From the NCBI GenBank assembly GCA_015489815.1, contig WFZA01000049.1, forward strand, positions 59,554-123,553: DNA of 64,000 bases, written 5' to 3'. Of this stretch, positions 22,041-32,820 are shown one piece after another. Position numbers and translations under genes: made by a program. The notes beneath the pieces were generated by a model. It did not search any database, was not told the origin of the DNA, and saw nothing but the letters and a program-made list of their open reading frames with translations. This DNA is from Caldisericales bacterium. GTDB taxonomy: Bacteria > Caldisericota > Caldisericia > Caldisericales > Caldisericaceae. Position 1 is the stretch's first letter; each line of letters begins with the position of its first letter.

Positions 22041-25000
22041 TTATGGATAAGTAATAGTTATACTACGCGTTGCATTATCCCATACGATTTTTGCACCAAA
22101 TGCCTCTGCTATAAACCTTAAAGGCACCATAGTGTGATTCTTTATAATGAGAGGCGGTGCATCAAGCATTACTTTTTTGTCGTTAATTGAAGCAAAACTT
22201 TTTCCTATTTGAAGGATAATCGTCCTGTTATTTAGAGTAATAAATACGAGTTTAAATACAGGATACCACTGAATCTTTGCACCAAATGCTTCCGATATAA
22301 ATCTTATTGGAACGAGCGTTCTGTTTTTTACTATCAGCGGCGGCGCATCAAGCAATTTCTTTTCGCCATTTACTATCACATACTTGTTTCCAATTTGAAG
22401 TATTATAGTAGTTTTAAGAATAAGTTTTACGGGAATTGATACTTTAGTTTTATTCCCTGCAAGGTCTGTTGCAACGACACTAATCGTGTTAAGGCCTTCT
22501 TTTGAAAGCGTTAAGGTGCAGGAGAACGAATAATCCTCCGGATTTACAGGTACTGAAATACCGTTAACTGTTACCTTTGCATTCTTTTCAGTCTTTCCCT
22601 TTACAGTTACAAATTGAGAGTGGATTACCTGGAATGCAACAGGAGCAAACACGGTAAGTTTTGGTGGCGTAGTATCTACACTTACGGTAAGGTTTACAGT
22701 TGTGACATTACCCGCCTGATCCGTTGCCTTAATAACAAATGCCGTTTTCTCTGAGATATTTTGGGAGTAAGTAAACGAACCGTCAGGAAGGACATCTACC
22801 GACTTTCCGTTCACCGTTACCGTCGCACTTTTTTCAGTTTTCCCCTTTATTACGCAATTATGTGTGTTTAATACTTCGTTATTTTTAGGTGAAAGAATAG
22901 TAAGTTTAGGAGGAATAGTATCTACTTTAAACTTCTTACTAACTACATCACTTTTGTTGTTTTCGTTATCAACTGCATAGCAGTAAAGCGTGTGCACTCC
23001 ATCAGGCACAGAGATCGGAGAAGTATAAATAGTAGGACTTCCGTTATCAAAGTAATAGTAAATTACCGGATGAGGGTCAATCGGGCTACTCGCAGTAAGT
23101 ATTACGATCGGATGCGTCTTGTAGTAGCCATTTAGTCCGTCTGGATTTTCAGGGTTAACGCTCATAGACACGGTAGGCAAAGCAACAATAGTAACCTTTT
23201 CTGCCTTTATCCAGGTAGGCTCTGCCGTGGTAGAGATTTCAAAGTAATAGTCACCTGTAGTCTTCGGATTTTTAATACCTGCACTTTTGTCAATTACCGC
23301 AGTTACGGTTGAATTAGGATAAATGTACACAGGTGTTCTTACTTCTACGACACTTCCTGAACGAACTCTTACATAACTAACAGGCATATTATTTATCTTT
23401 ACGGAAGTTATCGGAATATTGTGTGGCAGATAAAAACCGACTGGGAATTTTATTAAAATTTTGTCCACTCCTGCTTGAAGTGCGCCTGAGGCACCCGTTA
23501 CGAAAGAAACTGTAATAGAAATATTTTTACCAACGCCATTACTGCTTAGTTTTACTGTGGGATTCAATATATGAGATTTTACGATATGCACCTCGTAACT
23601 TACGGATACAGAATCTGCAGAGGTATACACTGAAAAGCTATAAGTTCCAGCATTATCTGGATTTCTGATGCCAGCCTCTTTTTTAAACACCACGGTAACA
23701 TTTGAATTATTGCCTACATAAACAGGAGTAATTATCGTAACTTTTCTATTTGAGATCGTAACATTGTACGCTTTACTACCGTTTACCAGAACATACGAAG
23801 AGTTAAAGTAAGAAGGTAGTTTAAATCCCTGTGGAAATTCCACAAAGATTTTACCGGAAGAAGCAGACAGTGCACCACCTGAGGAAGTAACAAACGCAAT
23901 GGTGCATTCAGAATTTGCATTTTGAGTATTAGGTTTCAATGTAACATTCAAATTTGATATTGAAGTTCCAACGATATTGTACTTGTTAGAAGTCGCTGGA
24001 ATTACATCTCTATTCGTAGAGAGCGTTAAAGTATACAATCCCGGAGGCGGATTTTTAATCCCGTAATTAGAAGAGATAAGGACATTGCAGGATGAGTTAT
24101 TGCCCACCGAAAGATTATTTGGCAGGTATATGGTTAAAGTTTCCCCGTTAACATACCTGCTCGCCACGCTTACGCCGTTTATCGTAATGTAATTTGGGCT
24201 TCCGTTAGGAATTTGCGTTCCCTGAGGGAAAGTAATTTTAATGTAGTCACCACCCGTGAGTGCCCCGTTAGGACCCGTAACAAACCAGATAGAATAAGTT
24301 GCTGCAGCATACGCCGTGTTGGGAGAAACAGAAACTGTAAGATTCTTTATGTTACTTTGCACGATCGTATACGAATTAGAAGTTGCAAATGCAGGCTCCT
24401 TGTTCGTAGCAAGTTGAATTGTATATGTGCCAGCAGGTGGGTTCTGCACTCCAAAGTCTGTAGTTATGTCAATAGAAGCCGTATAGTTCGCAGGACAATT
24501 CACAGGCGTCTTTATGTCGAGTTCAAGATTGCCCACTCTCGTAACACTTGAACAGTGATATCCATTTACCAGTACATAAGAAGCATTAATCGTAGAAGGA
24601 AGGACAGTACCCGAAGGAAATTTCACATATATGTGGTCATTGGTGTAAAGTGAAACATTGGGAACAAAAGAGATTGCATAGTCAGCAATACTTCCACTTG
24701 AAAGCGGGCTTACGATTACGGTCAAACTCCTTACCGTCTGTTGTATGTACAACGGATATGTCTGCGCTGCTTCCTTTGAAGTAGAAACCGAAATATCGTA
24801 ACTTCTCCCTCCAACAGGCGGATTCTTGATACCAGCAGAACTGTAGATTTGAATGTTTACACTTCCGTTTGCTGCAAGATCCTGTCCAGGATAGATTCTT
24901 ACCGTCTTCCCGCTTACAGTAACATTATAGGGCAAGACTCCGTTCACCCTTACAGCATTTTTATTAATCGTCGTAGGGACATAAAACTCATTTGCAAACT

Positions 25001-25196
25001 GCACTGAAATGTAATTCGCGTTTCTTGAAAGTGCCGCTGCTATCGTAATAGAAATTGTGTAGTTTGAAACCGTATTGGGCGTGTCTGGATTTGCAACTAC
25101 ACTATTTACCGTAAGCGCAAACGCAGAATGCGGTAATACCACCATTACAAGCAAGAGCACGAGAAAAACTGAAAGTACTCTCTTCATTTTTACCAC
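22041..25196 (-). CDS. Large secreted cell-surface protein: six or more ~115-aa novel repeats, two Ig-like domains and two C-terminal CAO-N-like anchoring domains
   Basis: Signal peptide. Repeat modules each end in ...S(S/N)xGI(K/Q/R)NP(P)xGxYxxxxST. They are followed by TPPKLT...KGKTEK...VNG Ig-like modules, and then LVPIRFISEAFGAKIQW and MVPLRFIAEAFGAKIVWDNATRSITI. Confidence 0.7.
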   Translation of the reverse strand: MVKMKRVLSVFLVLLLVMVVLPHSAFALTVNSVVANPDTPNTVSNYTISITIAAALSRNANYISVQFANEFYVPTTINKNAVRVNGVLPYNVTVSGKTVRIYPGQDLAANGSVNIQIYSSAGIKNPPVGGRSYDISVSTSKEAAQTYPLYIQQTVRSLTVIVSPLSSGSIADYAISFVPNVSLYTNDHIYVKFPSGTVLPSTINASYVLVNGYHCSSVTRVGNLELDIKTPVNCPANYTASIDITTDFGVQNPPAGTYTIQLATNKEPAFATSNSYTIVQSNIKNLTVSVSPNTAYAAATYSIWFVTGPNGALTGGDYIKITFPQGTQIPNGSPNYITINGVSVASRYVNGETLTIYLPNNLSVGNNSSCNVLISSNYGIKNPPPGLYTLTLSTNRDVIPATSNKYNIVGTSISNLNVTLKPNTQNANSECTIAFVTSSGGALSASSGKIFVEFPQGFKLPSYFNSSYVLVNGSKAYNVTISNRKVTIITPVYVGNNSNVTVVFKKEAGIRNPDNAGTYSFSVYTSADSVSVSYEVHIVKSHILNPTVKLSSNGVGKNISITVSFVTGASGALQAGVDKILIKFPVGFYLPHNIPITSVKINNMPVSYVRVRSGSVVEVRTPVYIYPNSTVTAVIDKSAGIKNPKTTGDYYFEISTTAEPTWIKAEKVTIVALPTVSMSVNPENPDGLNGYYKTHPIVILTASSPIDPHPVIYYYFDNGSPTIYTSPISVPDGVHTLYCYAVDNENNKSDVVSKKFKVDTIPPKLTILSPKNNEVLNTHNCVIKGKTEKSATVTVNGKSVDVLPDGSFTYSQNISEKTAFVIKATDQAGNVTTVNLTVSVDTTPPKLTVFAPVAFQVIHSQFVTVKGKTEKNAKVTVNGISVPVNPEDYSFSCTLTLSKEGLNTISVVATDLAGNKTKVSIPVKLILKTTIILQIGNKYVIVNGEKKLLDAPPLIVKNRTLVPIRFISEAFGAKIQWYPVFKLVFITLNNRTIILQIGKSFASINDKKVMLDAPPLIIKNHTMVPLRFIAEAFGAKIVWDNATRSITITYP

Positions 25197-25311: not shown

Positions 25312-26247
25312 TTATTTTTCGATGTATTTGTAAAATTTTTGCCCTTTTAGTCCCAATTCAACTATCTTATGTTCACTCTCCAGGAGCTCAATGTACTTTA
25401 AAACTTCGTCACGATGTACACCGAGGCCTTCTGCAAGGTCTTCAAGTGTCTGAGGCCTGATGCGTATACTGCTAATAATTGCCTTTTCAAGATCCGGTTT
25501 GTAAGCAGCATTCGTCTCTCTGTTGAAAGGCTTTATAATTTCTGCACCATTGCCTATAATTTTCTGCGCAAACTTTAATTCTTCGTCGTCCAGTGGCTTT
25601 GCAAAACCAAAAGCAGGCGGCCTTACGACCGTATTTATCTGTACCTTGTCAGCCTTTATTTCTGGAAGCACTTTCGAAAGTGCACGATAGTTTTCCTCAG
25701 TATCGTTTACCCCTTTAACGAGCATTATCTCAATAAGCAAAGTTCCTTTGTATGCTTTCCTGAAGTCGATAATTCCAGAGATGATTTTTTCTGCAGTTAC
25801 GCCTTTTGCAGGCTGATTTACTCTTCTAAGGTACTTATCGTCTGCTGCATCCAGAGTACACTTCACAAGATCAGCTGGTAGAAGTTCCTCTCTTACCTCC
25901 GGCAAATGCAAAAGTGTAGAATTCGTTAAAACGGCAACAGGAATTGACGTCATTTTTTTAATCTCACGGATCATGTAACCGATTTTAGAATTAAGAGTTG
26001 GCTCGCCAGAACCAGAAAATGTAATGTAATCTATTTTCCCGGGATATGTTTTTAGATATTCGCTTAGTTCGCTAAGTATCTCTTCTGCAGGAATATACTC
26101 TTTTCTTTCAAGCGTAAGCTGTGTAGTTTTTGCAACTTCACAGTAAACACAATTAAAGCTGCAAACTTTTAGAGGCACAGGATCTATACCAAGAGAAACA
26201 CCCAACCTTCTTGAAGGAACAGGACCGTATATGTGTTTGTATTCCAT
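25312..26247 (-). CDS. Radical SAM enzyme with a C-terminal winged-helix-like tail
   Basis: CSFNCVYCE (CxxxCxxC) follows the GPVPSRRLGVSLGIDP motif, and the GSGEPTL glycine-rich SAM motif is present. The last ~60 aa (TLEDLAEGLGVHRDEVLKYIELLE) look like a wHTH domain. Confidence 0.8.
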   Translation of the reverse strand: MEYKHIYGPVPSRRLGVSLGIDPVPLKVCSFNCVYCEVAKTTQLTLERKEYIPAEEILSELSEYLKTYPGKIDYITFSGSGEPTLNSKIGYMIREIKKMTSIPVAVLTNSTLLHLPEVREELLPADLVKCTLDAADDKYLRRVNQPAKGVTAEKIISGIIDFRKAYKGTLLIEIMLVKGVNDTEENYRALSKVLPEIKADKVQINTVVRPPAFGFAKPLDDEELKFAQKIIGNGAEIIKPFNRETNAAYKPDLEKAIISSIRIRPQTLEDLAEGLGVHRDEVLKYIELLESEHKIVELGLKGQKFYKYIEK

Positions 26248-26300: not shown

Positions 26301-26822
26301 TTATCTTTCAGATTCAATTTTTTCTATACGGTTAATCAGGTTCTGTGTTCTCTTTTTTAATACTTCCACGGCCTCTTTTAAACCTTTAATTTCAGCACTC
26401 AAGTCAAAATTTTCAGAACGAGAAGCACGATGTGGTTCGTGTTCACCAGAGTGCTCGTGTTCGTGTTTAGGCTCAGAAAAAACGACATTTTCTGGTGCAT
26501 TTGCAAATTCACCTTTCTTATAGCGTTCCACTGCTTCCCTTAAGGTTCCTGTAACTCCCGTAATAATTTTTACACCAGCCTCCTGTAATACCTCTCCAGA
26601 ATTCGGTCCCATATTTACAGTTAAAACGACATTTGCTCCTTTATTTACTATGAACTGCGCAGCCTGTATACCCGCGCCACTCATTGCGCTCGCAGCCGGG
26701 TTCGGTACAATTTCAAACCTATCTGTGTCCGTATCGTAAAAGGCATAATACGGACACCTACCGAAGGAACTACTTACCATTGCGTTTTCATCACTGCCAT
26801 CTGACGGTAAACAAATAATCAT
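26301..26822 (-). CDS. NifX/NafY-like (dinitrogenase FeMo-cofactor-binding domain) protein with a His/Glu-rich and coiled-coil C-terminal extension
   Basis: GRCPYYAFYD...GAGIQAAQFIVNKGANVVLTVNMGPNSGEVLQEAGVKII matches the Nitro_FeMo-Co fold (PF02579-like). The tail is PKHEHEHSGEHEPH followed by a heptad-rich EIKGLKEAVEVLKKRTQNLINRIEKIESER. Confidence 0.75.
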   Translation of the reverse strand: MIICLPSDGSDENAMVSSSFGRCPYYAFYDTDTDRFEIVPNPAASAMSGAGIQAAQFIVNKGANVVLTVNMGPNSGEVLQEAGVKIITGVTGTLREAVERYKKGEFANAPENVVFSEPKHEHEHSGEHEPHRASRSENFDLSAEIKGLKEAVEVLKKRTQNLINRIEKIESER

Positions 26823-26834
26823 ATCTAACCTCCT

Positions 26835-27128
26835 CTACTTTTCCAATTCCGAAAGTCTTTTTTCAATTTCCGTTAGTGTATCGGAAATGTTTTTCAAAAC
26901 ATCGTGGATTGCAAGAACCTCGTCTTTTTTGCTATATCCGTATGAGGCATATGGCGTATATTCAACACCATTTGGATAGTACCCCCACTTCCACCATCCG
27001 CGTGGAAGCCATGGATAAGCCCTACAATAAGGGGTAGGATTGCCAAATCCATATGCCCTACCAAAGCCATAGCCAAAGCGTCTGCCATAACCAAAACCAC
27101 CGCCAAAACCATAACCGTATCTGAACAT
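26835..27128 (-). CDS. Small Gly/Tyr/Arg-rich low-complexity protein with a C-terminal coiled coil (DUF5320-like)
   Basis: MFRYGYGFGGGFGYGRRFGYGFGRAYGFGNP...WWKWGYYPNGVEY followed by DEVLAIHDVLKNISDTLTEIEKRLSELEK. My recollection is that DUF5320 proteins combine a G/R-rich N-terminus with a coiled-coil tail. Confidence 0.55.
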   Translation of the reverse strand: MFRYGYGFGGGFGYGRRFGYGFGRAYGFGNPTPYCRAYPWLPRGWWKWGYYPNGVEYTPYASYGYSKKDEVLAIHDVLKNISDTLTEIEKRLSELEK

Positions 27129-27132
27129 ATTG

Positions 27133-27534
27133 TCACCTCCCTTCTTTATTTAAAATGTTTTTAATTTTTACATGCCCATCTGCTTTTAAAACTCTGCAAG
27201 CATCGTACGATGCTTTGCCCTGTGCAATTGCAAGTGCACAATCCATACAGGTAGGATACCCGCACGCCTTGCAATTAATTTTAGGTAAAACTTCGTAAAT
27301 TTCATCAGCCAATTTTTTTGTTTTTTCGTCAATATTTTCTAACGAACTTCTCACAGTAGTATCAGTAACAAATACCCCTTTACTGCTCCTGCCATAAGCA
27401 ACGCCTCTACCAACTCTCCGGCCAAATCCTCTACCCAGCCCTCTGCCAAAACCGCGGCCTTTTCCAATTCCACCGCCTCTTCTACCGGTAAATGGCCCTT
27501 CTCCCCGTGGTCCTGTTCCATCACCAAAAGGCAT
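27133..27534 (-). CDS. Gly/Arg-rich (RGG/GRG repeat) protein with a C-terminal RnfB-type putative Fe-S cluster motif
   Basis: N-terminus MPFGDGTGPRGEGPFTGRRGGGIGKGRGFGRGLGRGFGRRVGRG. The C-terminus CKACGYPTCMDCALAIAQGKASYDAC matches the CxxCGYPxC...AxAIAxG...C motif of the RnfB/ACS 'FeS' domain (PF04060-like). Confidence 0.6.
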   Translation of the reverse strand: MPFGDGTGPRGEGPFTGRRGGGIGKGRGFGRGLGRGFGRRVGRGVAYGRSSKGVFVTDTTVRSSLENIDEKTKKLADEIYEVLPKINCKACGYPTCMDCALAIAQGKASYDACRVLKADGHVKIKNILNKEGR

Positions 27535-27968
27535 TACTTGTCACCTCCGTCCTTACAATTTCCACACTCACCAAATATTTGCATTTCAAAAGAAGATAAA
27601 CTAAAGTTATACTTATTTTTCAACAATTCTTTAATTTCTTTAAGGAACTTTCTGACTTCCTTGCTATCCTCTGAAAAATCCATTATGTCGCCGCAATTCG
27701 TGCAAACCAGATGAATCTTAGCAATGTGTGGCTTCTTTTTTAACTGATAGTGCTTTTTCTTTTTCCCAGAAATAGAAATAGATTCTACAACTCCATTCTT
27801 TTCGAACAACTTTAGACTTCTATAAACAGAAGCAAAGCCAATACCTGGATAAAGTTTTCTTGCTACTTCAAACACTTCTTCCGCCGTTAAGTGTTTTTTG
27901 CTATTATTTAATACGGCAAGTACTACTTCGCGTGGTTTTGTCATTCTGAAACTATTTTTTACTTTCAT
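27534..27968 (-). CDS. Fur-family metalloregulator (Fur/PerR/Zur-like)
   Basis: MTKPREVVLAVL...HLTAEEVFEVARKLYPGIGFASVYRSLKLFEKNGVV, a structural Zn site (CTNCG...ECGNC). The start is taken at the MKVKN ATG, which has an AAAGGAG RBS; this is M13 of the track ORF. Confidence 0.8.
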   Translation of the reverse strand: MKVKNSFRMTKPREVVLAVLNNSKKHLTAEEVFEVARKLYPGIGFASVYRSLKLFEKNGVVESISISGKKKKHYQLKKKPHIAKIHLVCTNCGDIMDFSEDSKEVRKFLKEIKELLKNKYNFSLSSFEMQIFGECGNCKDGGDK

Positions 27969-28166
27969 GCTATCATCTCCTTTGAAATTGATTATTATTC
28001 TCATAAATATGATACTAAAAAACTAAAAAATTGCAATACCTTTACAACGCCTTAACCTGCAAAAATACGGTGACTTCCTCAAAAATAAGTATTGTGTAAT
28101 TTTTAAATTTTGCTATAATACCGCCTTGCTAAAATAACAGTAATTTTTAAAAACTTGAGGTGTAAA

Positions 28167-29519
28167 ATGATTAAAAAATGGTTTGTTTCATACGGATTAC
28201 AAGGCATAGGGTTGAGCAGTTTAATGATAGTTATAACACTATTTGCAGCGGTTGCACTGCACGGTAATGTGCAACAAGCAACTGCAGCAGCGGCTTTATA
28301 CTCAACGGGCACACTCGTAGGCTCATTATTCGTGGGCAACCTGCTGGATAGAAAGCCGCTTTACGGGAGAGTCGTTTTCTCTGGTTTTATGGCAAGTAGT
28401 ATAATAACTGCAGTTATGCCGTTCTCTTTTAACTTAAAAGCATATATGGTATCCGCAATTCTGCTTGGCTTCTCAATATCTATGATAAATCCAGCTATTA
28501 CGCTTTACCTTTCACGCCATTTTGACGACGAAAAGTATAGGAAGTACATTAATAACTTCTATCTTGGGAATAGCATCGGCATAACGCTCGGTACATTCGC
28601 AGGAGGATATATTCTTTCTGTATTGCCAATGCTCGCAGAAGCAGATAGGATGAGAATATTGTTTCTCGTTTCGTCTCTGCTTTTTGCAATTAGTGCTGTA
28701 ATCAGCGCTGACATCCCTAAGATAAAAAGAATTAAAAGGGTACGAAAAGAAAGAAAGTTTACGGTAAGTGTTAGGCCTATTTTTGCAAGTCTAAGGCTTA
28801 TTCCCCGTACATTTCCAAAGAAAATCGATCTTTCTGCATTCAGCAAAGAGATTAAGCTCTACCTTGCTGGAGTATTTACGATATTTTTTGGTGCTAACCT
28901 ATTCTTCTCCCCGTTTCCCGTATATCTAAAAGAAGGCCTCAGCATACCTGCATCGACAATTTTCCTTATGTATGGACTGGGAAACATAGCAGCGACACTT
29001 GCTTATCTGTTCACACGGCATGCAATGGAACGCTTTAGAGACTTTTCGATTATGCGCGCCGTTTTATGGGCGCGCATCTTTAGTTTCTTTGGAATCGTCG
29101 TATTTGGTATGTTACACTCAATAGAATGGACCCTTATCACATTTGTTCTGATAAACTTTACATGGCCATTTCTTTACATTACATCCACAGTCCAGGCAAC
29201 GAAACTTGCAAAAGACGAAAACAAAGGGAGAGTACTTGGATTATTTAATGTCGTAATTAGCTTTGCAGTAATACTTGCATCATTTTTGTCAGGGATGCTG
29301 GCACTTCGCATAGGATACTATCTTACATTTTTGATAGGTGCGGTAATTTTGTTCATAGGCGAGAGAATAACATATCTCGTTGCAAAGAAAGTGCCTATTC
29401 CGAAAGAAATCGTAGAAAAACTTAACGAACGAAAAAAGAAAGAAAGTAGAATAAGGAAACTTAAAATTAGAAAATTCTCAGGCTTTTTAAAAGAAAAAAA
29501 TTCAGGGCAGTGCTTTTAA
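28167..29519 (+). CDS. MFS transporter
   Basis: 12-TM protein transcribed divergently from the Fur-family operon. The start is at the MIKKWF ATG, which has a GAGGTG RBS. Confidence 0.8.
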   Translation: MIKKWFVSYGLQGIGLSSLMIVITLFAAVALHGNVQQATAAAALYSTGTLVGSLFVGNLLDRKPLYGRVVFSGFMASSIITAVMPFSFNLKAYMVSAILLGFSISMINPAITLYLSRHFDDEKYRKYINNFYLGNSIGITLGTFAGGYILSVLPMLAEADRMRILFLVSSLLFAISAVISADIPKIKRIKRVRKERKFTVSVRPIFASLRLIPRTFPKKIDLSAFSKEIKLYLAGVFTIFFGANLFFSPFPVYLKEGLSIPASTIFLMYGLGNIAATLAYLFTRHAMERFRDFSIMRAVLWARIFSFFGIVVFGMLHSIEWTLITFVLINFTWPFLYITSTVQATKLAKDENKGRVLGLFNVVISFAVILASFLSGMLALRIGYYLTFLIGAVILFIGERITYLVAKKVPIPKEIVEKLNERKKKESRIRKLKIRKFSGFLKEKNSGQCF

Positions 29520-30558: not shown

Positions 30559-32820
30559 CTATCCGCCGTAAATAATCGTCACGGTACGCGTCGTTCCATC
30601 CCACTCGACCTGCGCACCAAATGCTTCCATAATAAAGCGAATTGGCACATAGGTCCTGTTATGAATAATAATCGGCACAACTTTAGGATTGTTTGGATCT
30701 ATCTGTTTGGGGACGCCGTTTACATACGCCGTGTTCTTTCCAATGTATAGTTCAACTTTATCGTTGTTTAGCGTAATCGTTACTTTGCGCTGAACGGGAT
30801 CCCATTCTACATCCGCACCAACTGCTTCAGTTACAAACCTTATCGGAACAAGTGTTCTGTTATTTTCAATAATAGGAGGAACATCTGTTGGGACGAACTT
30901 TCCATTTACCGTCATTCCCTTCTGGTCAATAACCATTTTTACTACCACTTTACTGCTCTTTTTCTGGTCGTAAATGTATAATCCACCTGATTCCGTACCA
31001 ACGAAAATTGCTCCACTCTTTTTGTATACAAAGTCCGGGCTAAACACCGTTCTGAAAACATATCTATTATCTTTGTCCCCGTTAATGTTCGTCCACATAT
31101 TTCCCTCGTCGAAACTCAGGTAAACCCCATCCCAGGAACCTGCAAGAATAATGTGGTCATTTGCAAAGTTTGGGGAAAGTTTTACGCCGTCGTCCCACAT
31201 GTGGTACTTTAACAACGCATCAGATATATTGGTGAAACTATCTCCACCGTCTTTTGAGAGATATAATCCTGCACCCATCGTCCCTACGATCAGCGTCTGA
31301 TCGTTTTCAAAGTTTCTTGAAAGTGAAATATCTGCAATCGTATAGTGAGGGATTTTATTAAACCCAATGGATGTCCACATTTTGCCCTGATTTAAGGTTT
31401 CGTATACAGTGCCACCATTCGTGCCTATAAAGATTGCGTTACCCACGCCGTCAACTGCCGTAATGTCAGTATCGTACGGTAACATACCCTTGTTTCTCTG
31501 AACAAATGTACTTCCACCGTCGGTTGAAACGAACATTCCCTTATCTCCACTGCCTACATATATTACACCCTTTTCGTCCTCAAATAGTACGGAGATGTAA
31601 TTCGTGTCGATGTTTACTTTACTAAAAGTACTTCCACCATCGGTTGTTTCGTATAAACCGTCACCTTCAGTTCCTACGAAGTATGTCTTCGAATTTCCGC
31701 AAACACTCGTTACGATGTCGCCTTCGGGAAGCGCGGAAACATTTGTGAATGTCTTGCCTTTATCTGTAGACTCGTAAAGTCCATTCCACTTAGTACTTAC
31801 AAATACTGTGCCGTCGTTTGCGTAATCCGTAGAAAAGTTGATTGCCGTAATGTCAGTGCAGGTAATTCCGTAACTTGACTTCGTAAAGTTACCGTTTTCT
31901 ACTTTATACACACCTCTTCCCTGCGTACCGACAAAAATTGTGCCATTATCGACACAGATCGCAGAAAGAATAAGGTTGCCGTCCTTTGCAACGCTTTTCC
32001 AATTTTCCCCATCGTATTCCATTACACCGTTTGAAACAGTTGCCGCATACACTTTACCGTTATCCAGCACGAAGTCATTTATTTTGTAACCTTTAAGCAT
32101 GTGATCTAAATTATCTGCACTGCCCATAAACATACCATCGTAAAAAGTAGAAATATAAAAAGTGCCGTCCTGGTAAATAATTTTTGATACCGGACTTTCC
32201 GTTACACTGTCTACGATTTTTTCGGAATCTTTTCCGTCAAGGCTTACTTTATAAACAGTTCCATCCTCACAACCTACATAAACATAATCGGAAGTTGCGT
32301 AAATTGCAGTTGCCGTAGGTTTAGTAAACCTTGCAATTGTTTTCCAGAGCTGTTCCTGCTTATTCCATTTCATCAGCAGGCCGTCAAACGACAGTGCAAA
32401 AATGTCACCTTCAGAATCTTCCGCAAGGCCTATAATGTAACTTGATTCAAGGCCCATGTTAAAGAACTGGAAGTGCTGCCCTTTGTCCCTGCTTAAAAAT
32501 ACACCATCTTTCGTCCCGAGAAATAAACCATCCTTACAGTAATTTTTAGATATAAGAACTGCATTCGCACCTTCAGAAAAAGTAAATGGGAGCTTTTCCC
32601 ACTTCTTTCCAGAGTCAGTGCTTTCAAAAATCGCTGCATCAGTAGAGGCAATAAGCGCTCCACCAGACATTTTTTGAATTGAAGTTATAAAGCCACCGTT
32701 TATTGATGCAGGATTTCTCCAGTGGACTTCGTCGTCAGCCTTAGCAATGTGACCAAAAAAGAATAAAGGCATAACAACCAGTGCAAGAACAACAAATAGT
32801 ACTAAAAACTTCTTTTTCAC
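30559..32820 (-). CDS. Secreted BNR/Asp-box beta-propeller repeat protein with two C-terminal CAO-N-like anchoring domains
   Basis: Multiple S-x-D-x-G-x-T-(W/F) repeats (STDSGKKW, SRDKGQHF, STDKGKTF, TTDGGSTF, STDGGSTF, SKDGGDSF). C-terminus ...NNRTLVPIRFVTEAVGADVEWDPVQRKVTI...HNRTYVPIRFIMEAFGAQVEWDGTTRTVTI. Confidence 0.7.
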   Translation of the reverse strand: MKKKFLVLFVVLALVVMPLFFFGHIAKADDEVHWRNPASINGGFITSIQKMSGGALIASTDAAIFESTDSGKKWEKLPFTFSEGANAVLISKNYCKDGLFLGTKDGVFLSRDKGQHFQFFNMGLESSYIIGLAEDSEGDIFALSFDGLLMKWNKQEQLWKTIARFTKPTATAIYATSDYVYVGCEDGTVYKVSLDGKDSEKIVDSVTESPVSKIIYQDGTFYISTFYDGMFMGSADNLDHMLKGYKINDFVLDNGKVYAATVSNGVMEYDGENWKSVAKDGNLILSAICVDNGTIFVGTQGRGVYKVENGNFTKSSYGITCTDITAINFSTDYANDGTVFVSTKWNGLYESTDKGKTFTNVSALPEGDIVTSVCGNSKTYFVGTEGDGLYETTDGGSTFSKVNIDTNYISVLFEDEKGVIYVGSGDKGMFVSTDGGSTFVQRNKGMLPYDTDITAVDGVGNAIFIGTNGGTVYETLNQGKMWTSIGFNKIPHYTIADISLSRNFENDQTLIVGTMGAGLYLSKDGGDSFTNISDALLKYHMWDDGVKLSPNFANDHIILAGSWDGVYLSFDEGNMWTNINGDKDNRYVFRTVFSPDFVYKKSGAIFVGTESGGLYIYDQKKSSKVVVKMVIDQKGMTVNGKFVPTDVPPIIENNRTLVPIRFVTEAVGADVEWDPVQRKVTITLNNDKVELYIGKNTAYVNGVPKQIDPNNPKVVPIIIHNRTYVPIRFIMEAFGAQVEWDGTTRTVTIIYGG

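Follow-up and report, generated by a model that had tools for sequence, protein, structure and literature searches.

The domain DUF5320 (PF17253) is listed in Pfam as being of unknown function in Bacteria and Archaea, and the locus described here shares with that family an N-terminal motif (MPxGDGTGPxGxGPxTGRG), a disordered Gly/Arg-rich middle region, a C-terminal coiled coil and NifX-like neighbours. The locus lies in a 64,000-nucleotide stretch of a Caldisericales genome of the family Caldisericaceae (contig WFZA01000049.1, positions 59,554 to 123,553 of the forward strand; hereafter the window), where two adjacent small genes, A and B, encode proteins rich in glycine, arginine and aromatic residues. 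Protein A is a member and protein B a divergent member of this family, and to that extent both belong to an already catalogued domain. New here are the fusion of DUF5320 to an Fe-S domain (DUF5320::FeS), which is specific to Caldisericota, its split or fused relation to a Fur-type regulator, the gene order Fur-A-B-NifX across phyla, and the recurrent fusion of NifX-like domains to DUF5320. We propose, with a probability of about 0.55, that A and B would be subunits for connection or oligomerisation in an ORP-like metal-cluster module under the control of Fur, in which A would be the Fe-S partner of the regulator.

The ORP complex of D. vulgaris (Orp3/4/5/8/9 and MrpORP) is a described system with a similar setting, being specific to anaerobes and built on a core of small NifX-like "Di-Nase" cluster-binding proteins; in Desulfovibrio the Di-Nase domains and ORP-complex proteins can take up Fe-S or Mo-Cu-S clusters and exchange them, and MinD/Mrp proteins share in the binding and transfer of Fe-S clusters (PMC6345978). 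Its MinD/Mrp-ferredoxin ATPases are also present in most of the DUF5320 loci from other phyla, to which a Calditrichota locus (L081) adds FeoAB. In contrast to the ORP complex, the window has no MinD/Mrp ATPase and shows regulation of the Fur family instead of sigma-54 with an enhancer-binding protein, and DUF5320 proteins are not listed among the ORP-complex subunits.

In the assembly of the nitrogenase cofactor by NifB, NifX and NafY a further likeness can be seen, as the NifX-like domain of the window adjoins a radical SAM protein in the manner of the NifB domain pair; however, no nitrogenase genes were seen among the open reading frames flanking the cassette, and by sequence the NifX-like protein falls into the group of TM1290, MTH1175 and ORP. 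The C-terminal part of A (residues 78-117) resembles the N-terminal domain of the CoFeSP large subunit (2h9a, 4c1n, 4djd) and RnfB (8ahx), all of the PF04060 type, with all four cluster-binding cysteines kept. In CoFeSP and RnfB this domain is part of a corrinoid protein or of a membrane complex, whereas in A it stands by itself at the C-terminal end of a disordered DUF5320 protein. IscR, RirA, NsrR and the reported [2Fe-2S] form of Fur (reviewed in PMC11672702) are likewise DNA-binding metalloregulators coupled to an Fe-S cluster, which may serve them as a sensor. Here, unlike in those regulators, the candidate module is of the CoFeSP/RnfB type and is appended through a DUF5320 linker; in the window it has a gene of its own, and in a sister clade of Caldisericota it is fused to the regulator.

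A conserved gene cassette

On the minus strand the genes follow each other in a tight series of five, from the Fur-like gene through A, B and the NifX-like gene to the radical SAM gene, with a transporter gene diverging from them:

27534..28004, minus strand: Fur-family regulator, first gene of the operon (PF01475, 99.8 bits)
27133..27534, minus strand: protein A, 133 residues, DUF5320::Fe-S fusion (PF17253 and PF04060)
26835..27128, minus strand: protein B, 97 residues, divergent DUF5320 paralogue of the B type (PF17253 at 22.9 bits, orthologues, tail homology)
26301..26822, minus strand: NifX-like protein, 173 residues (PF02579 and a heptad tail)
25312..26247, minus strand: radical SAM protein, last gene of the cassette (PF04055)
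28155..29519, plus strand: major facilitator superfamily (MFS) transporter, divergent, with a promoter region in common with the Fur operon (PF07690)

The stop codon of the Fur-like gene overlaps the start of A (TAATG), the gaps between A and B, B and the NifX-like gene, and the NifX-like and radical SAM genes are 4, 12 and 53 nucleotides, and a GGAGG-type ribosome-binding site is located upstream of each of A, B and the NifX-like gene. The order of the whole cassette is kept in eight Caldisericales species genomes (L001-L008), within the limits set by contig ends (L003 ends in B and L008 after the NifX-like gene), and it is maintained down to about 40-50% identity. The radical SAM gene stays in place in L001, L002 and L004-L007, as does the transporter gene in L001, L002, L003, L005 and L006. 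With L001, the closest species representative, as reference, the ratio of non-synonymous to synonymous substitution rates (dN/dS) is 0.20 for A and 0.14 for B (dS up to 0.8), indicating purifying selection on both, and in the low-complexity region and motif of B dN is 0 at a dS of about 0.57.

Both open reading frames reported by the first-pass annotation, of 133 and 97 residues, are present on the minus strand and are real genes. That annotation had itself named lack of translation as the finding that would overturn its interpretation, and chance reading frames in G-rich DNA might indeed be imagined given the low-complexity sequence, the overlapping open reading frames in alternative frames and the score of B under the Pfam threshold. 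The ribosome-binding sites and tight operon spacing, the dN/dS values of 0.14-0.20, the gene order at about 40-50% identity and the invariant motifs in A and B leave practically no chance for such an explanation, and a non-coding artefact is ruled out by the conservation data.

Proteins A and B and their NifX-like neighbour

Protein A can be divided into three parts:

27379..27534, minus strand: residues 1-52, N-motif MPFGDGTGPxGxGPxTGRRGG followed by GRG-hydrophobic repeats, predicted to be disordered (invariant columns, low model confidence)
27289..27360, minus strand: residues 59-82, short internal heptad-like helix, remnant of the DUF5320 coiled coil (shuffle p = 2e-4, extent of the Pfam alignment, AlphaFold2)
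27184..27303, minus strand: residues 78-117, [4Fe-4S] domain of the CoFeSP/RnfB type with Cys88, Cys91, Cys96 and Cys113 (PDB matches, invariant cysteines)

Against DUF5320 the protein scores 40.4 bits (threshold 27; residues 1-79, profile positions 1-89 of 99) and against PF04060 50.1 bits (threshold 23; residues 83-114). In the 33 canonical DUF5320 proteins from which we built a family profile, M1, P2, G8, P9, G11, G13, G17 and G21 of the N-motif are invariant, and D5, T7, T16 and C23 occur at 90% or more. Residues M1, P2, D5, T7, G8, P9, G11, G13, T16, G17 and G21 are all there in A, and invariant in 14 homologues; position 23 is occupied by Ile, and there is no Cys at all in residues 1-87, the family's ~90%-conserved Cys23 being absent. 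The N-terminal region (residues 1-52; 38% Gly and 19% Arg) has a predicted local distance difference test score (pLDDT) in the AlphaFold2 model below 50 over most of residues 1-66 (segments 1-7, 11-14, 20-26 and 36-66). Residue counts agree with the earlier description of a Gly/Arg-rich N-terminal half in A and a Gly/Phe/Tyr/Arg-rich one in B; the "RGG boxes" attributed to A are for the most part GRG-hydrophobic repeats, with a single RGG triplet.

Helices are modelled in A at residues 59-65 and 70-82; at the C-terminal end (residues 118-133) a heptad pattern was not found (shuffle p = 0.69), and there is no terminal coiled coil. Compared with the canonical family, A has neither Cys23 nor the terminal coiled coil, carries PF04060 in their place and is found only in Caldisericota. 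The Fe-S domain matches 2h9a, 4c1n and 4djd in the PDB at E values of about 1e-8, and RnfB (8ahx) as well; Cys88, Cys91, Cys96 and Cys113 align with C17, C20, C25 and C42 of 2h9a (CoFeSP large subunit, E = 1e-8) and are invariant among the homologues of A. The domain is thus predicted to bind a [4Fe-4S] cluster, as judged from these alignments. The first-pass annotation had recommended a search of other genomes for the combination of RGG region and Cys motif. The DUF5320::FeS architecture occurs in only 14 protein clusters, and the full-length genomic matches (8/8) are all from Caldisericales/Caldisericota metagenome-assembled genomes. The reversed arrangement, with the Fe-S domain first and the GRG repeats after it, was seen elsewhere, in P0029, P0033 and P0041.

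Protein B likewise has three parts:

27042..27128, minus strand: residues 1-29, Gly/Phe/Tyr/Arg low-complexity region with a weak 18-nucleotide tandem repeat (composition, repeat, dN = 0)
26979..27044, minus strand: residues 29-50, invariant block GNPTPYCRAYPWLPRGWWKWGY, containing the sole Cys of B (orthologue alignment)
26838..26930, minus strand: residues 67-97, heptad (coiled-coil) tail, a = V/L/L/L and d = I/I/I/L (heptad test, AlphaFold2, hhalign)

The score of B against PF17253 (22.9 bits) lies under the threshold of 27, and those of its Caldisericaceae orthologues range from 17 to 25 bits, while the same-position orthologues in L007 and L008, the most distant pair, reach 75-78 bits against DUF5320 and carry the motif MPGGDGTGPLGQGPMTGRGLGYC. 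The MPxGDGTGP N-motif is absent from B, which starts with MFRYGYGFGG, and among its orthologues it is present only in L007 and L008. Since the gene at the position of B in these two genomes is a canonical DUF5320, we regard B as a divergent member that has lost the N-motif; it differs from the canonical family also in its sub-threshold score and in an invariant aromatic/Cys block of its own.

The low-complexity region of B consists of 41% Gly, 21% Phe, 17% Tyr and 14% Arg, and the tandem repeat within it (27066..27116; 18 nucleotides, 2.8 copies, 78% match) encodes hexapeptide repeats of the GFGYGR type. The length of the region varies among orthologues, which suggests change by replication slippage. 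In the adjoining block GNPTPYCRAYPWLPRGWWKWGY nine orthologues agree without exception at 17 of the 22 positions, and the part NPTPYCRAYPWLPRGWW recurs nearly letter for letter in P0060, labelled Calditrichaeota by NCBI, and in P0061 (ENA, taxon not given). The block also resembles, by eye only, the motif PPWPYVGxGRGGLPRC of B-type proteins from Dehalococcoidia, and hhalign found no link between these two blocks. In the Calditrichota locus L081 (6001-7329) the B-type protein is apparently divided in two: the low-complexity region and NPTPYCRAYPWLPRGWW block are encoded by one gene, an aromatic region and the coiled coil by another, and these are followed by NifX::DUF5320, Fur, two MinD-ferredoxin ATPases, a NifX-like protein and FeoAB. 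No sequence relative of B was found in the PDB; a protein identical to B is present in 41 blocks of the genome collection index (24 contigs bearing B examined).

The tail of B is hydrophobic at 89% of the a/d positions against 9% elsewhere, a pattern that none of 5000 shuffles equalled (p < 2e-4), and AlphaFold2 gives a single helix at residues 67-96 with pLDDT 83-94, the remainder falling below 50 at residues 1-36 and 45-63. By hhalign it is related to the canonical DUF5320 tail (98%, E = 2.7e-13) and to the Dehalococcoidia B-type tail (97.7%). Under the Harbury a/d rules a core with a = L and d = I, as in B, would be expected to give a tetramer. Apart from this tail and the helices of A, the AlphaFold2 monomers are of low confidence. 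Coiled-coil and disorder predictions had been suggested from the start as a check on the idea that both proteins end in heptad segments. For B the idea stands, with a tail that passes the shuffle test and is modelled as a helix, and the N-terminal regions have low pLDDT; for A it does not, as the C-terminal half is occupied by the PF04060 domain and only the internal helix at 59-82 (p = 2e-4) has a heptad-like character.

The third protein comprises a domain and an extension:

26505..26822, minus strand: residues 1-106, NifX-like domain of the ORP type (Nitro_FeMo-Co; PF02579, 86.5 bits)
26304..26504, minus strand: C-terminal extension, made of the His-rich linker KHEHEHSGEHEPH at residues 107-137 and a heptad tail at residues 138-173 (heptad test, orthologues)

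Its relatives in the PDB are 1rdu (TM1290), 1eo1 (MTH1175) and 2wfb (ORP), with E values of 1e-17 to 2e-13. The solved relatives have 116-136 residues and no C-terminal extension; the extension is kept in seven orthologues of the window's protein. The heptad tail that had been noted at its end was recovered at residues 138-173 (shuffle p = 0.002).

The neighbouring radical SAM protein has no sequence relative in the PDB, and neither a NifB match nor an equivalog family was obtained for it in NCBIfam. The same family occurs within 6 kb of DUF5320 genes in seven other loci from several phyla. Members near DUF5320 or NifX-like genes were seen at L040:5116-5982, L069:5889-6950, L063:10349-11365, L018:8899-9666 and L030:10769-11542. 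The radical SAM and NifX-like proteins may constitute a split NifB-like pair.

The Fur-like regulator and the neighbourhood of DUF5320 genes

The regulator that heads the operon (PF01475, 99.8 bits) has both CxxC pairs, and its closest solved structures are the Fur proteins of C. jejuni and V. cholerae. The long version of its reading frame (MRIIINFKGDDS...) is probably called too early, and the true start is probably the ATG at 27968 (MKVKNSF...). The early start is doubted because the -10 box (28014..28009) and a Fur-box-like element lie in or next to the long version; furthermore, a good ribosome-binding site, AAGGAGATGA, is found upstream of the ATG at 27968, and the fused homologues described below start at the equivalent of MKVKNSF. 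The element is located as follows:

27983..27997, minus strand: Fur-box-like putative operator TAATAATCAATTTCA, downstream of the -10 box and ahead of the ribosome-binding site that serves the Fur-like gene (tentative)

It matches the 7-1-7 Fur box of B. subtilis at 11 of 14 positions. A promoter (TTGACA/TATAAT) followed by an element ..AAATCATTATCA is found at the same place in L003 and L006, and the succession of a conserved promoter and a Fur-box-like element suggests that the Fur-like gene is autoregulated through this putative operator. The classical 19-bp Fur box of E. coli is absent from the window at up to three mismatches, and a terminator scan gave nothing above chance. The transporter gene may be co-regulated with the Fur operon via the common promoter region.

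The regulatory metal ligands of V. cholerae Fur are eight in number, with E81, H88, D89 and H125 among them. The alignment tentatively indicates that 4/8 are substituted in the protein of the window (E81Q, H88I, D89I and H125F), and the loss of about half of the regulatory ligands would fit sensing through a partner.

A candidate for this partner is A. In L007 and L008 the Fur open reading frame runs in frame into A, and Fur::DUF5320::FeS proteins form eight protein clusters (263-272 residues, with 57-89% identity to the L007 fusion that served for the search), one of which, P0220, is named "transcriptional repressor" by NCBI; Fur fused to a canonical DUF5320 forms one further cluster. Nine independent clusters have such junctions, which makes an assembly error unlikely. 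The fused Fur proteins have lost the C-terminal CxxC of the structural site. By the classical argument from gene fusion, the in-frame junction of Fur and A is evidence that A and the separately encoded regulator of the window act together. No description of a fusion or arrangement of Fur with an RnfB-type Fe-S domain was found in the searched literature, nor anything relevant on PF17253 with PF02579 or on NifX with a coiled coil.

The family is large. With the profile of canonical proteins we obtained 4,271 clusters (counted at 50% identity) at E<=1e-10 and 11,108 matches at E<=1e-3. Part of the latter are low-complexity or coiled-coil false positives, because P0101, a repetitive coiled-coil protein of 4,931 residues, scores 94 bits (E=5.2e-22) against the profile; the count of 4,271 is the safer one, though not free of them either. 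The opinion that a composition of this kind is rare in bacteria is therefore wrong for DUF5320.

Neighbours within 6 kb were surveyed in 67 DUF5320 loci outside Caldisericota. NifX-like genes are found near DUF5320 in 51-52 loci, genes for MinD/Mrp-type ATPases in 44 loci and a Fur gene in 14 loci, and in 12 of the 14 the Fur gene is directly upstream of a DUF5320 gene with the N-motif. Two to five DUF5320-like genes stand in tandem in 33/74 loci. In Dehalococcoidia the order of the window recurs, with Fur, an A-type gene (N-motif, no coiled coil), a B-type gene, sometimes a canonical member, and a NifX-like gene with a coiled coil; the B-type gene there encodes a Gly/Phe/Arg region, the PPWPYVGxGRGGLPRC block and a coiled coil. 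Long NifX-like proteins of the Dehalococcoidia type, in which a low-complexity region and a coiled coil follow the NifX-like domain, pass the thresholds of both Nitro_FeMo-Co and DUF5320 in 10/10 cases tested, with DUF5320 scores of 30-48 bits over profile positions ~10-99, and one of these ten, in L074, is a NifX::DUF5320::2xFer4 protein with two ferredoxin domains. These fusions are evidence for a physical or functional link of DUF5320-type tails with the NifX-like domain. The window can be described as a minimal version of this ORP-type neighbourhood.

In L041:5992-6210, L066:5268-5957 and L024:4685-5326 the N-motif, or a NifX-like domain accompanied by GRG repeats, is joined to ends that are rich in Cys and resemble zinc ribbons (CxCxxCG...CxxCG), a further metal-binding partner of the DUF5320 connector module.

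Candidate roles of A and B

In the mechanism that we propose, B and the NifX-like protein would oligomerise through their DUF5320-type coiled-coil tails, as homo-oligomers or mixed, and these oligomers would gather NifX-like domains together with the single conserved Cys and His residues of the flexible regions. The Gly/Arg/aromatic regions would serve as flexible, mutually sticky tethers. In A the terminal coiled coil and the family Cys would have been exchanged for the CoFeSP/RnfB-type [4Fe-4S] domain, and A would dock on the Fur-like regulator and, most likely, inform it of Fe-S or redox status. What the sequence data establish is membership of the family, conservation, gene order, domain fusions and helical tails; the oligomerisation partners, cluster binding and the sensor role are inferred.

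Several points weigh against this proposal. Experiments on any DUF5320 protein were not found in the searched literature, where the domain is named in two papers only, and there in passing. Profile similarity between the tail of the NifX-like protein and DUF5320 tails is weak (65-84% by hhalign); the match with the tail of B is at 84%, and the core residues differ, with a = L and d = I in B against a = I/V and d = L in the NifX-like protein. In most loci a canonical DUF5320 stands beside a tail-less NifX-like protein, and the coiled coil may consequently be purely homo-oligomeric. The AlphaFold2 model of A is of low confidence (pLDDT 56). There is no MinD/Mrp-ferredoxin ATPase in the 64-kb window, which is thus not a canonical ORP cluster, and the adjacent Fur of other phyla keeps the canonical HHHH motif. 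The adjacency of Fur could also simply mean that Fur regulates the operon. Of the interpretation in the first-pass annotation, a hetero-oligomeric assembly or scaffold of all three proteins suggested by shared tails, the part that is supported is that the proteins belong together, by gene order, by recurrence in Dehalococcoidia, by the ten NifX fusions and by the tail of B (98%). Hetero-oligomers paired through the tails would be a candidate arrangement; A has no terminal tail, and the link of the NifX-like tail to DUF5320 tails is weak.

The resemblance to the RGG/RG and FG/YG regions of FUS, hnRNPs and nucleoporins had led to the suggestion that A and B are RNA-binding or phase-separating proteins of a eukaryotic kind, in which RNA binding or condensate formation would come from the Arg/Gly/aromatic regions and multivalency from the coiled coils. 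Both proteins fit this picture in composition and predicted disorder, and some loci have up to five tandem DUF5320-like genes, each with Arg/aromatic "stickers" and many with coiled coils; moreover, a DUF5320 protein of M. mazei was a candidate G-quadruplex binder in a motif screen (PMC7565180), and MrpORP of the ORP system is found at the cell pole (PMC6345978). The likeness is, however, compositional only. Unlike FUS and its counterparts, A and B have no RNA-binding domain, RNA-related context or detectable homology to them. The conserved neighbourhood includes no RNA-related gene and in the 67 loci is entirely one of metal and iron (NifX-like, Fe-S, MinD/Mrp, Fur), the conservation is at the level of residues (N-motif, single Cys, the 22-residue block of B, dN = 0) and goes beyond composition, and there is only one true RGG triplet. 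On these grounds we reject an RNA-binding RGG protein and consider the chances of the suggestion as a whole slim. A related possibility, which we hold to be speculative and rather unlikely, is that DUF5320 modules might build a multivalent, possibly condensate-like "metal-cluster hub" that would recruit NifX-like carriers, Fe-S proteins and, via A, a Fur-family repressor; the operon would then be transcribed according to the state of the hub, in its Fe-S content or its assembly, through a sequestered regulator or appended [4Fe-4S] sensing, and not by direct binding of Fe(II) to Fur.

The Fe-S domain of A also admits a role as dedicated donor of electrons or clusters, in which, as part of a split NifB-like pathway, it would reduce or load either the radical SAM enzyme or the cofactor carried by the NifX-like protein. 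The PF04060 domains of CoFeSP and RnfB are electron-transfer modules, NifB itself combines a radical SAM with a NifX-like domain, an architecture mirrored by the two genes of the window, the radical SAM family recurs at DUF5320 loci of several phyla, and the L074 protein joins NifX-like, DUF5320 and ferredoxin domains. Nevertheless, the stable in-frame fusion of A to Fur in the sister clade points to the regulator as the partner, and NCBIfam gave no NifB signature for the radical SAM protein. We consider a donor role unlikely, if still worth keeping in mind, as it is compatible with A being the partner of the regulator and the two roles are not mutually exclusive. The presence of the radical SAM gene could further suggest that B, and perhaps A, is the precursor of a ribosomal peptide modified by that enzyme, for instance with Cys/Trp/Tyr cross-links in the NPTPYCRAYPWLPRGWW block, given the small product with its invariant aromatic/Cys core. 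In the radical SAM protein, though, neither Pfam nor NCBIfam gave a SPASM domain or a recognition domain for ribosomally synthesised and post-translationally modified peptides (RiPPs), and the proteases and exporters that usually accompany peptide natural products are absent; such a radical SAM gene lies within 6 kb in only 7 of ~67 DUF5320 loci, the coiled-coil tail of B is conserved, and the family is fused to NifX-like and Fur domains. A peptide natural-product precursor is thus highly improbable, and we reject it.

If A and B are connectors of a metal-cluster module, the consequences would reach beyond this locus. DUF5320 comprises >4,000 clusters at 50% identity from anaerobic bacteria and archaea, without a functional study, and handles on it are now provided by the near-constant NifX-like partnership, including fusions, by the Fe-S variant and by the variant fused to a Fur repressor that lacks the structural Cys4 site. 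The idea that anaerobes use disordered Gly/Arg/aromatic connectors for metal-cluster trafficking, and to bring Fe-S status into Fur-type regulation, is testable, and this locus and its relatives may help to explain the poorly understood ORP-type systems. Should they prove true, the connector or condensate and Fe-S-sensing ideas would be of high interest.

Elsewhere in the window, two very large secreted proteins are encoded at 22041..25196 and 30559..32820, with copper-amine-oxidase-N-like repeats at the end (cell-envelope or S-layer type); one of them has many repeated Ig-like modules and the other BNR/sortilin-like repeats.

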